Below, piece by piece: positions 23,101 to 29,100 of a stretch of 49,704 bases of DNA. A program made the position numbers. Within the stretch, counting starts at the first letter, position 1, and the number at the start of each line of letters is the position of its first letter. Source of the stretch: a plasmid; the sequence record NZ_CP146842.1, one strand, 5' to 3'.

Positions 23101-26100
23101 CACCAGCGGCGGCAACCGCTCCGGGCTAATCTGCGAATTTTAGGGAAGAAGGAGACACATCATGGCTCGTGGCGTAAACAAAGTGATCCTCGTAGGCACT
23201 TGCGGACAAGATCCCGAAGTCCGCTATCTGCCCAATGGCAACGCCGTCACCAACCTGAGCTTGGCCACCAGCGAGCAGTGGACAGACAAACAGAGCGGCC
23301 AGAAGGTCGAGCGCACCGAGTGGCACCGCGTTTCGCTGTTCGGCAAGGTCGCGGAAATTGCCGGCGAGTATCTGCGCAAAGGCTCCCAGTGCTACATCGA
23401 GGGCAAGTTGCAGACCCGCGAATGGGAGAAGGACGGCATCAAGCGTTACACCACGGAGATCATCGTGGACATGCAGGGCACCATGCAGCTACTGGGCGGG
23501 CGTCCGCAGAATCAGCAGCAAGGTGGCGATCCGTACAACCAGGGCCAGCAGCAGGCACCACGCCAGCAGGCACAGCGGCCCCAGCAAGCCCAGCGGCGAC
23601 CAGCGCAGCAACCGCCGCAACCCTCCCCACAGCCTGCCGCCGATTTCGACAGCTTTGACGACGATATACCCTTTTAGAAGCTAATGATTCTCATTTGTAT
23701 TTGAATAAAGCCCCTCTCAGCAGGGGCTTTTTCTTGCCCGTTATGCCCGACATTCCGTAAATTATTAGTCAAATATTGTTTGACGAATAGTTGACGGCGA
23801 GGCCGCTTTTTGAGATACTAACCACGTCGAAGCAATACCGCCTCGACACCCCGGACACCAGCGGCGGCAACCGCTCCGGGGCAATCTGCGAAAGGAGATT
23901 CACCCATGACTATCGAAACCCACATCCTGTATTTCAGCGAAGCCGAGGCCCTGCGCGAGTTCAGCGGCTTCACCGTTGACGTGTCCCATCAGGCTCGCCC
24001 GAACCAGACCCCATCCAACGTCACCATGTACATGGTCGTTGCCCAGCGTGGCGGCATCGGTCGCCGCGAGGTGATCGCTGAGTTCCCGCTGGAGATGCAC
24101 GCCACGATCTTCCGTGACATGTGCGAAGGCTTTGTGCGCAGCGAGCGCCTGACCAAGTAATCCAACCCCGGCCCGGACACAAGCGGCGGCAACCGCTCCG
24201 GGCCTTCCTCTGCGAAAAAAAGGAGTTACCTATGGCTACTCAAGCCCTTCCCTCGTTCCGCGTCTTCCTGGCCCGTCTGGCCGCTTCTGCGCGCCGCGCA
24301 GCGGCCCCAGCTCGCCCGGTGCCGTCCATGCAGCAACTGGCCGAGCGCGGCCAGTTAATGGAGGCCGCCGACCTTCTGACCCTCGCACGGGCTGTTAAAC
24401 GGGCCTAACCCCACTACCCAACCGAGCGCCGCGGCTTCGCCCCGGCGCTCCCCGCTGGAGAACAGGATATGTACGGACACCAGACCACGCCGACCAAGGC
24501 CGCCAGGACGTGCCAGGCGCTTGCCGCCGCTGCGCGCAAGGCCGAGCTGCAACACGATTGGGAAGTGGCCGCAGAGTTCTACGAGGCCGCCGCAACGTTC
24601 ATCACCAAACCGGGCGAACTGGCGCACCGCGATAGCGCCGGCTTGCTGCGCAAGGCCGCCGCATGCTGGGAAGCTGGGGATCGAGGCCAAGGCGCAGGAC
24701 CTGGCCACCGTTGAATATGTGGATTGTGCAATCCAAAAGGCCCGCTTACGCGGGCCTTTGTCATCGTGCGACTGGCTGGAACGGCGACCCGCCGCAGTGT
24801 TCACCGCCGCACAGAATCGCCAGCTCAGGCTTGCCCCATACCTGCGTTGCGCATTTCGGGCACCGGTACTTGACCCGGTTTGACCGGTTCGGCGGCACCT
24901 CGGGCGGCAGCTCGACCAGCTCACCGAGCGGCCCCAGGTCATCGCCGCCCTGATCCACGCCTTGCCCCTGGCCTTCGTCCTCACCGTCTACGTCATCGAT
25001 AAACCCGCGACCGTTCGAGCCGGTCGGCGGGTCAATTTGCGGTCGTTCCGGGGGGAACCGGTCGTACCACGACAGGGAGAAGTCCCGCGTCAGCAGCTCC
25101 GCGCAGCTCACGTCAAAGCGCCCGCCTGGGATGATGTAGTGATCCATCTGTTCGCCCAGGCGCTTGCCACCAGGTGCGCCGGTATTGCTGGGCATCAGGC
25201 CCAGGGCTTCCATGCGTGCGGCCCATTCCTTGTTGTGGTAGCCACGCCGGCCAGGCGCGCCAAAGTGGAACTGCCACAGGTGCACCATTTCATGGGCCAG
25301 CACCGACAGCGTTTTGCGCAATGAGCGAATCGCGAAGTAGCCGGGGTTCATGGCGATTTCATCGGTCATTTCACCGCTACGACGGGCGAAGCGCTTGCGC
25401 GAGAAGTAGCCGTAGGTTCGGCGTTCACGCTGGAGGGTGATTAGGCAGTCCGGTAGCTGGCCGTCGAACAGCTGGACGTTGAAGTGTTCATACGCCAGTT
25501 GCAGCTCGGCATAGACCTCATGAGTCGGCAGTAGCGACATGGTGACGATCCTGTCTTGTGGATTGTGCAATCCAGTTTAATAGAAGTGGATTGCGCAATC
25601 CAGGGCGAGGCCTTCGGCGCGGGCTGTCGTGCTGCGCATCGAGCCACGGCTGCGCCGCGTCTCGCCCCTTCGGGCTTCCATCCCTCTCGCCTCCGCGCCC
25701 GGTTCCCAGGCGCTGCGCGCTCCGCTTGCCGCACGGGAGCGCCTGCGGCGACTCCCACAAACGGCGAGGCCGCCTTGCGGCGGCCTCAGCGTGTGTCACA
25801 CCCCGGCGCTAGCCGGCAACCAGGCGGTAGAAGAGCAGGGCGCCGCCCAGGCCTCCGGCCAGGCCGGCAATGCCGGCGCAGATCGCCGCCACCCACACCG
25901 TCCGACGCTGGGTCGCTGCCAACAGGCTTTTGGCCTGGCGGTCCAGCTTCTCCAGGGCCTTGTCGTGCCGCGCCTCGGTTTCCCGAATCGCGGCGGTCAG
26001 CTCCCGATTGGCCGTCACCAACTCGGCGCGGGCATCCTCGACCGTGGAGGCCAGGCTTGCGCCGGCCTCCTGCATCGACTGGTGGACCTCGCGGGCCGCC

Positions 26101-29100
26101 GCGACCGCACCCTGGAGATCGGCCAGGATCTCTTTCGAGTCACCCAGGAACCACTCAATTAATACTTCTTCTCTCGGTTTCCTAGAATCCATCACTGGCA
26201 CTCCGATGCACTTAGGCCGTCAAAGCGGCGAAGCATTCGTCCAAGTTAGCGCGAACGGGCTTCGCGTAACTTGTCCAACGGTGAAGGCGTGCATATTCCT
26301 TGGCCTTCTCAACATCAGATTCGGCCTTGGCCATCGCCTTGTAGTCGGTATCTTCGCCGATCAGTTGATCGAACGACATTTTGTTGGCCGCAAGATAACC
26401 ATAAACGTCGCTGTCAAACAGGAACGCGCCCGGCTTGATCGTCGCCTTCTTGGTTTTCTTTACATAGTTGTAGATCGACGGAATTTCAGCCTCGGGATTA
26501 TCACGGATTCGGTTCGGCAGCAGAATGATGCGATCAGGAGAAACGCCAATGGTCGCCAGCGCCTCAACAGTTTTCAAACTCTCCTGCCAGGCCTTTTGCT
26601 CTGGAGTTACCGGAATAATGAACTGTTCGATTTCATCAATGAAACCGTGGTAGCGCGACCCAGCCTCAAAGAACGATTCGATGTTAGAGGCGCCAATATC
26701 AATGATGGCAATATCCTCAAGTACCAAATCTTCGATCAGCTCGCCCGCTTCGCGGCCTCGCATCGTGACCACTTCGGCAATGCCCAGGTCCAGGGCCGAC
26801 TGGTTAATAGACTCGATGGCAAAGAATGCCGCGCCTGGCATGCGTGGGTAGAGCAGGTGCGCTGCAATAGTGGTTTTGCCGATGCTGCCGCTGTAATTCA
26901 AGATCGCTCGTTTCATACGCTATTTCCTTTTGCCCGTATATTTATCATCAAGATCCGAGAAATCCATGGAATGGACTTTCTCAAAATCGCTACTGGTGAC
27001 GATGCGGCCCTTTAAGGGTGCGCTCCCCTCGGGTGGCGCGGGTTCATCTTTCTGGATTGCGCAATCCACATCCTTTCCCTGGCCACCGCTTTCCGGTCGG
27101 GGGAGTGGTGCAGTTGTCGCCGCTGGTGTTCCAGCTCGCTCCTGCCTGGCGGCCCTCGCTCGCATCAGCGCCTTGCAAAACCCGTTGAACCCGATGGTCA
27201 TCCCGTGCTCATTTTTGAGCGTTTCCCATACATCCTCCCGTGAGGCTCCGGCTGTCAGTGCGGCCTCGATCTCGCCGAGCATGTTCCGCACCAGGGCCGA
27301 ATCGCTCCGTGGTTTTATTCGCGATAGTGGCATCGCTGATCCCTCGTTATCGACCTCGGGCACTTTTGTCCCCTGTTTGTCTCTGATCCGTACTCTAACC
27401 GTCCCTTTTGGGTCTGGCAAGTCCCTTTTTTGTCTCTACTATGTCCTCACATCGTCTCTCGGTTGTCTTCAAAGCGTACTCAGTGGCACCCCTGGGCGGC
27501 GAAAAGCCCCTCACGCTGCGCGTGAGGGATCAGGAGGACGCTTTTTTGCGACCTCCGAGGGGTGCAGACGGCATTTTTCTCCCTTAAAAGCAGAGCGGTA
27601 TTTTCCCTTAACGAGCTATACACCATACGCAATGCTTCGCATAGCTAAGTCGTTGAAAAATAAAGCATTTTCAACGACTTACGAAAAAGCGTAAGACCTG
27701 CGTAAGACAAAACTACGCGCAGAGCCTGATTTTGCTGTATTTTATGTCTTACACACGTCAGACAAGGAGGCCATCCGTGCCCACAGTGAGCTTTCGATGC
27801 ACCGAAACACAGAAAATCGAGCTGGAAGAGCGGTCCCAGGGCGACATTTCGGAGTATGTACGCCGGCAGCTTTTCCGGCAGATGGAGCAGGAGGACACGC
27901 TAGAAATGATCCTCCAGCGCCTCGATCAACGGCCTGGCAGTGACGGCCAACCGACCGCTGGGATCGACCGTCAGTCGATGGCCATCTTGATCGAGCTGCT
28001 GTTGCTCCTGCGCACCGCGTCCAAACCGGATGCTAAGAGGGAGGCCCAGGCCGAGGTCGAGCGCCTGGGCTTCGACGTATGGGATTCATCAAAGAGGGAT
28101 AGCTGATGAACGAACGCCAACGATCTCAAATCTGCCTCGCCGTACTGGTGCTGGTGCCACTGTTCGCATGGTTCTTTACCGCCAAGCTGCTGTATGGGAT
28201 TGAAAAGCAAGGTGCCCGCGACAGGGTGTTTTACCTGGCGAAAAACACGTTCACCTTGTGGCCGCTTGCGGTTGCTTTAGTTGGTGGGTTGATACTCGCG
28301 ATTGCGTTGTGCGTGCTTATCGTTAAGTTGAGCAAGACCACTTTTGCCGGCGCTCACTTTGATAAGTATTTCCGTGGTAGCCAACTTGTTTCCCAGCGTG
28401 AGCTTAAACGACTGACAAAGGAGAAAGAGGAACAAATAACTATTGCCGGGGTGCCTGTTCCTATTGCTGCCGAGGCTACGCACTTTTCAGTTGGCGGGGC
28501 CACGGGTACGGGTAAGAGTACGATTTTCCGCGAAATGATGTACGGCTGCATGCAGCGGAAAGATCGAATGGTAATCCTTGATCCCGATGGGGAATTCCTA
28601 TCCACCTTCTATCGCAAGGGGGATAAAATCTTGAATCCCTATGACGCCAGAACCGAGGGTTGGAACTTCTATAACGAAATCCGTAGTCACTACGACTTTG
28701 AGCGCTACGCAAAATCCATTATTCAAGTATCTGACAGTAACGACTCGGAAGAATGGAACCAGTATGGGCGCCTGCTGTTCGCAGAAGTGGCCAAAAAACT
28801 GTACAACACCACGCGCAATCCTGGCATGAGGAATGTGTTTCGTTGGACTAACGAGTGCAGTTCGGAAGCGCTCCAGGGGTTTGTAAAAGGCACCCGTGCC
28901 GTATCGTTGTTCACTGAAAACGAGCGCGCTACAGGCAGTGTCCGTTTTGTTCTCAGTAATAAACTACCTGCACATTTCGATATGCCCCCAGGCAACTTTT
29001 CGCTACGGCAGTGGTGCGAAGATCCTAACGGCGGCAACTTGTTTATCACCTGGGACGAGAACATGCGCGAAGCGCTGCGCCCATTGATTAGTTGCTGGGT

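Follow-up and report, generated by a model that had tools for sequence, protein, structure and literature searches.

The plasmid sequence record NZ_CP146842.1 was analysed over a stretch of 49,704 nucleotides (nt), here called the window, which contains four copies of a 16-base pair (bp) palindrome, TGGATTGYGCAATCCA, in and around the neighbouring stbABC genes and mpr, a gene encoding a SprT/Spartan-like zinc metalloprotease. Based upon a comparison of this region with a large number of mpr loci from other mobile elements, this palindrome is very probably the operator of the mpr promoter, and it is a control site that apparently was not described before. The sequence comparisons also suggest that the protein binding to it is likely to be encoded by the mobile element itself, and the case for this protein being Mpr, which is the leading candidate, appears to us about evenly balanced. 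An incomplete search of the literature on the motif, on plasmid Mpr/SprT-like genes and on the stb and mpr genes of IncN plasmids found nothing on function or regulation.

An exact-match search of the window found TGGATTGYGCAATCCA exactly four times, at positions 24720-24735, 25559-25574, 25587-25602 and 27053-27068, and no fifth copy was found across the whole 49.7 kb even when three mismatches were allowed. The number expected by chance at two or fewer mismatches is 0.04, and the observed count was reached in none of 100 shuffled sequences. The earlier note on this DNA, in which four copies were reported and regarded as improbable by chance, was correct on both counts. Its coordinates hold for the two outer copies, whereas those that it gave for the middle pair (25558-25573 and 25586-25601) are each one base too low. 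The middle copies were also thought to overlap the start of the SprT-like gene, but the start of mpr in annotated relatives is the ATG at 25543 (giving a protein of 260 amino acids), which places the two copies 16 and 44 nt upstream of the gene. The placement of the outer copies, one at a convergent intergenic hairpin and the other in the 3' part of the stbA-like open reading frame (ORF), agrees with our results. The first of these lies between convergent 3' ends downstream of mpr and directly abuts a terminator-like hairpin, AAAAGGCCCGCTTACGCGGGCCTTTG (24736-24761, with GGCCCGC/GCGGGCC arms), which was read from the sequence, is common to the two convergent transcription units and is conserved in relatives; a simple terminator scan of the window did not list it. 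The second is within the 3' half of the stbA-like ORF, at codons ~90-95 in the part that codes for the linker, and stbB starts 137 nt downstream of it. All four positions are kept in pCT14, the AR441 plasmid and pPC9.

The arrangement of the two copies upstream of mpr is that of a classical repressor operator, namely a dyad-symmetric site overlapping the -10/+1 and/or -35 region. On the minus strand, from which mpr is read, the promoter-proximal copy TGGATTGCACAATCCA (25559-25574), which is invariant in four family members, is separated by a 12-nt spacer, CTTCTATTAAAC (25575-25586), from the distal copy TGGATTGCGCAATCCA (25587-25602), the two being 28 bp apart centre to centre. As read from the sequence, the spacer carries a -10-like element (TATTAA, or TAAACT counting the first T of the proximal operator), and the distal copy lies over the expected -35 region. 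The same geometry was observed in a sample of 97 non-redundant promoter-proximal copies, where a TANNNT hexamer ends at offset -2, -1 or 0 of the first base of the palindrome in 47 loci, with other offsets found in only about 1-3 loci each; examples of the hexamer at mpr loci are TATAAT, TATAAA, TATCAT and GATAAT. A second palindrome is present 27-36 bp upstream, over the -35 region, in about half of the mpr loci. Since the hexamer abuts the palindrome, the latter should extend from about -6 to +10, with the transcription start expected within it, a position that fits steric repression and counts against an RNA hairpin. One result that speaks against this interpretation is that a simple consensus sigma-70 scan of the window did not call the putative mpr promoter, whose existence we infer by analogy with the other loci.

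The distribution of the palindrome provides further evidence that it belongs with mpr. A search by tblastn with Mpr found homologues in 2,640 PLSDB records, and the mpr carriers among the loci that were opened include IncN, IncP-9-like and PromA-type plasmids, besides the pMOS94/pCT14 family. In most of about 100 diverse mpr loci, the consensus TG(G/T)ATTGYRCAAT(C/A)CA directly follows a -10-like hexamer. One IncN plasmid contains two palindromes just upstream of the SprT-like gene and three more inside stbA, and another has the operator variant TGTATTGCGCAATACA. An IncP-9-like plasmid carries TGTATCGTACGATACA both within stbA and upstream of mpr; in the PromA-type plasmid pSN1216-29 the palindrome is upstream of a nuclease-orf-peptidase operon, and in plasmIII of Xanthomonas albilineans (MOBP) it is just upstream of the SprT-like gene. 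A further 80 loci, limited to one genome per species, were taken from plasmids and chromosomal islands resembling integrative and conjugative elements (ICEs) of Alpha-, Beta-, and Gammaproteobacteria, with Mpr identities of 46-99%. About 60 of them have the consensus sequence 19-100 nt upstream of mpr or its operon, and this copy is usually the only one within 20 kb. In metagenomes, mpr is present at 44 of 91 loci with tandem operators, and in 41 of those 44 it is directly adjacent. This very wide conservation is the opposite of the absence from homologous plasmids that the earlier note had named as evidence against a function.

Some of the loci, however, argue against an exclusive association of the palindrome with mpr. 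For 47 of the 91 metagenomic tandem-operator loci no mpr was found within the fetched stretch, and these mpr-less loci include at least seven that are internal to stbA and about six that precede recombinase genes of the Integrase_1 type on contigs also carrying ParM-like genes. In the metagenomic locus L228 (Ga0157370_10008521, 1500-3400), a pMOS94-like block consisting of stbABC, the origin of transfer (oriT) and trwABC, with 66-69% DNA identity to that of the window, has two palindromes inside stbA, and a pentapeptide-repeat (Qnr-like) gene follows stbC in place of mpr. Similarly, the related plasmid pCB58 has lost the mpr-bearing segment, and its sole remaining copy is the one inside stbA.

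Copies of the palindrome were also observed beside other genes, which are heterogeneous (higA-like, a P-loop gene, korA and integrase genes). Tandem palindromes are present upstream of tyrosine recombinase genes (Phage_int_SAM_2 and Integrase_1) in L251 (2767-2821), L247, L266, L277 and L224/L273; one annotated contig of this group also has a ParM/ALP-like gene, and mpr was not found in the stretch fetched. Two Morganella-type plasmid contigs that also bear mpr with two operators have an extra palindrome 77 nt upstream of a higA-like antitoxin gene of the helix-turn-helix (HTH) type (L048, 18255-18270; L057, 18109-18124). In plasmIII (L010), a perfect palindrome (26667-26682) precedes korA-parA-parB by 215 nt; it is outside the core promoter, with about 55 nt between it and a promoter-like site (TTGACT-17 nt-TAAGCT) further downstream.

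The sequence variants of the palindrome are informative as to the origin of its binder. All copies on one element are of the same variant (four of class G, defined below, in the window; five on the IncN plasmids L005/L012; two of TGTATCGTACGATACA on the IncP-9-like L009), whereas different variants occur within one host group, as seen for the IncN plasmids L005 and L006 and, in Pseudomonas, for the window and L009. As the variant is specific for an element and uniform across its copies, the binder is probably encoded by the element. When whole ORF sets were compared for the window, the IncN plasmid pCRE-118_2, pSN1216-29 and plasmIII, only Mpr, a serine recombinase and components of the type IV secretion system (T4SS) were common to these four motif-bearing replicons. 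No neighbouring gene, regulators included, is conserved across the 80 loci, and the serine recombinase was rejected as a candidate binder, as it is not conserved near these loci.

Mpr itself is implicated by its covariation with the operator. Operators were scored on the Mpr alignment as class G (TGGATTG..CAATCCA) or class T (TGTATTG..CAATACA), and the best predictors of the class were Mpr residue 100, which belongs to the loop 'PGRRGYHN' after the third zinc ligand, and residue 131, in 'GGKRxGE'; both co-vary with base pair 3/14 of the operator. A tree was then built without columns 100 and 131, and 12 phylogenetically independent G/T pairs were extracted from it. Glu131 was confined to the G side in 11 of the 12 pairs and Arg100 in 10, with no reversals for either; the best of 2,346 other (column, residue) characters had a net score of 6. 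Of 85 sequences, 84 conform to the rule that the operator is of class G when position 100 is Arg and position 131 is a residue other than Gln. In a prospective test, the class was predicted from the residues alone for 12 database homologues, with the DNA retrieved only after the predictions had been made, and nine of ten proved right. Among these successes were P0063, P0027, P0105, P0102, P0070 and P0067, and for P0063 (72% identity to its nearest known relative) and P0067 the nearest known relative has the opposite class. Recognition of G by Arg, of C by Glu and of A by Gln is common in protein-DNA readout, and the pattern of covariation would match it. As Mpr alone is shared by all carriers and co-varies with the operator, it is the most probable binder.

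Mpr is one of the SprT/Spartan-like zinc metalloproteases (HEMVH) and has, besides its protease core, a disordered acidic linker and, at the C terminus, a zinc ribbon with four Cys residues. In its AlphaFold2 model (mean predicted local distance difference test score 84.5), a conserved alpha/beta subdomain of residues ~95-165, which contains positions 100 and 131, is followed by the disordered acidic linker (165-200) and then by the zinc ribbon. The best Foldseek match of this model is Spartan 6mdx (E = 7e-4), over the protease core, which also matches the PDB entries 6mdx/6mdw. Several points weigh against Mpr as the binder of the palindrome. A module for sequence-specific binding of double-stranded DNA, or an HTH, was sought in Mpr with the AlphaFold2 model and Foldseek and by a PDB sequence search, and only the Spartan core was found; we also know of no close precedent for a protease that acts as a palindrome-reading repressor. 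Among the homologues, P0066 has hybrid half-sites, and P0040 (T99/A100, Y131), for which no prediction was made, has class-G operators and breaks the simple residue rule. The tree used for the covariation analysis is a neighbor-joining tree with deep nodes, and identity within the pairs is 49-80%. Lastly, the operator is physically linked to the mpr gene, but linkage by itself would hardly account for the signal, which resides in two columns and does not extend to the codons closest to the operator.

It is possible, although on balance unlikely, that the operator at the mpr promoter is bound by some other element-encoded repressor, either TrfB/KorA-like or a small unannotated protein, and that the covariation of Mpr is indirect and reflects linkage. 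The restriction of the covariation to two Mpr columns, instead of a spread over the N-terminal codons nearest to the operator, is difficult to explain in this way, whereas the many tandem-operator loci with no mpr nearby, the extra copies upstream of the higA-like HTH gene in L048/L057 and the lack of a classical DNA-binding fold in Mpr would be accommodated. Proteins of the TrfB/KorA family are encoded by the window, the IncN plasmids and plasmIII, and the perfect copy upstream of korA in plasmIII would also fit such a binder, but no such ORF was detected in pSN1216-29 by BLAST or Pfam searches, and a KorA-like gene is present within +/-5 kb in only 10 of the 80 loci. Moreover, where KorA-like proteins accompany the same operator, their identity is only 25-44% and their recognition helices differ, the TrfB-like ArdK is present in R388 where the site is absent, and there is no copy near the korA-like gene of the window (21884-22234) or upstream of its operon. 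The proposal of a KorA/TrfB-like binder is weakened by these results.

It is improbable that the binder is a host protein conserved in Proteobacteria, either a transcription factor or a nucleoid protein. The use of the core ATTGYRCAAT in Alpha-, Beta-, and Gammaproteobacteria without a conserved neighbouring regulator, and its scattered copies in phage contigs without mpr, could be understood in these terms. However, operators of classes G and T and of a third class are found side by side in the same host groups, the copies of any one element change in concert, and no chromosomal regulon was seen in ~1.2 Mb of flanking sequence. The scans of viral contigs gave 56 and 43 loci, which is near a rough chance estimate, with an adjacent SprT-like match in only seven, and the recurring palindrome sites of Acinetobacter-like prophages are uninformative. 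A LexA box was also considered and rejected: class-T sites show at most CTGT-N10-ACAG (L006, L009), as against the N8 that is required, and class G lacks CTGT.

That the palindrome acts as a DNA or RNA structure, whether by folding into a hairpin or cruciform when the single strand is transferred or by forming a hairpin in the mRNA, is very improbable. In favour of it, the inverted repeat is perfect and located in the leading region beside oriT, and the symmetric changes between variants also keep the pairing; but conservation across phyla extends to the stem sequence itself and not just to its pairing, hardly any loop is left by the central 2 nt, and many copies are in ICE-like or operon contexts far from an oriT. 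The -10 hexamer also abuts the palindrome, and the transcript would start inside it. A search of Rfam with the region 21500-28500 gave only two chance-level matches (E = 0.12 and 0.26), and an RNA element was rejected on this result together with the predicted transcription start.

The suggestion in the earlier note that these sites are operators or centromere-like sites for the StbA-like protein or the StbA/StbB partition system was not borne out and appears extremely improbable, whereas its other suggestion, of a different repressor, agrees with the geometry of the mpr promoter. The StbA proposal draws on the presence of one or more copies inside stbA in several stbABC-mpr plasmid families and on the fact that StbA of R388 represses the promoter of ardC, another leading-region metalloprotease gene. 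In R388, StbA binds to stbDR, which are 9-bp direct repeats spaced by 2 bp, and the centromere stbS consists of two sets of five stbDR upstream of stbA. The window has an array of this form, with about nine AGRGAC-type direct repeats of 11-bp periodicity upstream of stbA (27367-27459, minus strand; autocorrelation peaks at lags 11 and 22), and this array is likely, by analogy, to be the StbA binding site (a stbS-like centromere/operator), separate from the palindrome. Autocorrelation peaks at the same lags are present upstream of stbA in IncN (AACTACA units), in the IncP-9-like plasmid and in R388 (ATGATGCA, stbDR), the repeat unit of the window family differing from both stbDR and the AACTACA repeats. 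The 16-bp inverted repeat thus differs from R388-type StbA sites in form, in its position relative to stbA and in its co-occurrence with StbA. The interval from the start of stbA (~27336) to the trwA-like gene (27732) has no palindrome, even with three mismatches allowed; palindromes are found on stb-less pSN1216-29, plasmIII and many ICE-like loci; and R388, which has stbABC, the TrfB-related ArdK and KorA, has neither Mpr nor a copy of the palindrome. On these grounds StbA was rejected as its binder. The form of the site, a 16-bp inverted repeat in four copies, one of them inside stbA, would also suit a ParB/KorB-type centromere, in which a few inverted repeats of 13-16 bp, some of them within genes, are bound by an HTH protein of the ParB family that has a ParA partner, but no ParB-like family is conserved beside the sites in the 80 loci or common to the four compared replicons.

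The copies inside stbA and downstream of mpr are themselves conserved. At the stbA-internal copy, five family members agree throughout a 20-nt block but vary in its flanks, and intragenic copies recur in the stbA genes of IncN (three copies), of the IncP-9-like plasmid (with the co-varied sequence), of a Vibrio plasmid and of several metagenomic contigs. They precede stbB by ~100-230 nt, and the frame in which they are translated varies, giving GLHNP in some of these genes and DCAIQ in others, which indicates that selection is on the DNA. The downstream copy (24720-24735) begins 6 nt after the stop codon of the plus-strand ORF 24469-24714 and is 26 nt beyond the mpr stop codon. It is conserved in relatives, where its central base alone varies; a Burkholderia locus has a copy in the same position (L202, +792), and plasmIII has one with two mismatches. 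Both types of copy may be conserved auxiliary sites, acting as roadblocks, as partners in looping or, for an internal stbB promoter, as its operator.

The window is part of a conjugative plasmid of the Pseudomonas pCT14/pPC9/pMOS94-related family, which is typed as MOBF, MPF_T and rep_cluster_688. On the plus strand, a TrfB/KorA-like gene (21884-22234, PF16509) is followed by ssb (23162-23677) and two small ORFs (23906-24160 and 24469-24714). The gene mpr (24761-25543, minus strand), which is named 'Mpr' in source annotations, matches the Pfam SprT-like family with E = 7e-12. The genes stbC, stbB and stbA-like (25809-27336, minus strand) were assigned by their synteny beside oriT-trwABC. The stbA-like gene (26920-27336), which hosts one palindrome copy and is here regarded as context and not as the source of the binder, has a weak DUF5338 match, and a homologue of its product in L193 has a precomputed PF28167 StbA-like annotation. 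The oriT region lies between stbA and the trwA-like gene, with which the genes for the type IV coupling protein and the MOBF relaxase form a plus-strand block (27732-32599).

Several other repeats were observed in this region. A GC-rich direct repeat, 91% identical in its two copies (22489-22593 and 25598-25702), flanks the ssb-mpr segment, and a further exact repeat of 25 nt is present at 22598-22622 and 25706-25730. The DNA between the two GC-rich copies is missing from pCB58, which suggests recombinational deletion. A relative of this repeat is found upstream of the mpr operators in the IncN plasmid L005 and in L198 and L193, and for the copy upstream of the distal operator no Rfam match was obtained and the predicted fold was not significant (z = -1.3). 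Additionally, two 136-nt promoter modules that are 90% identical lie upstream of ssb (23002-23137) and of the ORF 23906-24160 (23757-23892). In both, the sequence TTGACG-17 nt-GATACT is enclosed by GTCAA/TTGAC inverted repeats. The modules are similar to the CUP repeats found in the leading regions of IncN plasmids, and the TrfB/ArdK-like protein may have its operators there. A 32-nt GC-rich hairpin occurs three times in the 5' leaders (23095-23126, 23850-23881 and 24172-24203). Lastly, two other 16-bp palindromes, TGAAATTGCAATTTCA and TGAAATTATAATTTCA, are present at 558-573 and 43771-43786 (chance expectation 0.03), one being intergenic in the T4SS region and the other close to the beginning of the window; the small regulator encoded beside the VirB2-like pilin gene may use them as operators.

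Based upon these observations, the following model for the control of mpr may be proposed. The proximal copy, located at the -10 hexamer or 1-2 nt after it, would cover the transcription start, and the second copy, 28 bp upstream, would cover the -35 region; a dimeric repressor bound there would exclude RNA polymerase. If this repressor is Mpr, as the sequence comparisons suggest is most probable, mpr would be autorepressed, and entry of the plasmid into a cell free of Mpr would lead to a burst of mpr expression followed by its shut-off, a form of zygotic induction coupled to autorepression. Recognition of base pair 3/14 in either half-site is attributed in this model to Arg100 and Glu/Gln131, which belong to the conserved basic loops 'PGRRGYHN' and 'GGKRxGE'. 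A broader proposal, which we regard as improbable, is that Mpr is a site-targeted DNA-dependent protease, for which the palindromes are both autoregulatory operators and loading or activation sites next to oriT, gene and sites together making up a self-contained cassette found across proteobacterial plasmids and ICEs. The sites inside stbA, ~300-600 bp from the nick region, would then direct the protease to proteins bound or covalently attached to the incoming DNA, and its candidate substrates would be the relaxase-DNA adduct, StbA complexes and host defence proteins.

The mpr genes are among the most widespread backbone genes on the conjugative plasmids that spread carbapenemases, and the conserved operator provides a direct experimental handle on them and points to early, self-limited expression after transfer. 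The proposed recognition code is simple, with Arg100/Glu131 for G:C and Gln131 or loss of Arg100 for T:A. For purposes of annotation, three systems of cis elements in the leading region can now be separated, viz. the direct repeats of StbA, the repeated promoter modules that precede ssb and the palindrome associated with mpr.

In comparison to known proteins, Mpr has in common with Spartan, SprT and Wss1 its catalytic core and a zinc-binding module. Members of the Spartan/SprT family bind DNA, which Spartan does by structure and not by sequence, and to our knowledge Spartan has no known role as a transcription factor. Sequence-specific recognition of a palindrome by Mpr would be new for this family, and Mpr would be its first sequence-specific DNA-binding member known to us. 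The sites themselves may be compared with the operators of IncP-1 plasmids, i.e., OA for KorA, OB for KorB and OC for KorC, which are short perfect palindromes of 12-17 bp repeated on the backbone. They overlap the -10 or -35 elements of maintenance and establishment promoters and are bound by plasmid-encoded dimers. The Mpr palindrome is likewise short, perfect, repeated a few times and located at a putative promoter, but it differs in sequence, no homologue of KorA, KorB or KorC tracks with it, and it instead tracks with a protease gene in many unrelated backbones and ICE-like elements.

The same stbABC-oriT-trwABC architecture is present in R388 and in the window, and ardC of R388 is, like mpr as here proposed, a leading-region metalloprotease gene under tight repression. 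The two differ in that R388 relies on the 9-bp direct repeats of stbDR at 11-bp spacing and has neither Mpr nor the palindrome. ArdC (PMC7213743) also differs from Mpr in combining a single-stranded DNA-binding domain with a protease domain. The gene mpr, located beside oriT on the leading side, resembles zygotically induced genes in that its product is presumably needed early in the recipient and would then be repressed. Zygotic induction is known for such leading-region genes as ardA, psiB and ssb, and for the CUP/ArdK regulon of IncN plasmids. What would distinguish mpr from these known cases is that the proposed repressor is the product of the gene itself, forming with its operator a self-contained cassette that moves between different plasmid backbones.

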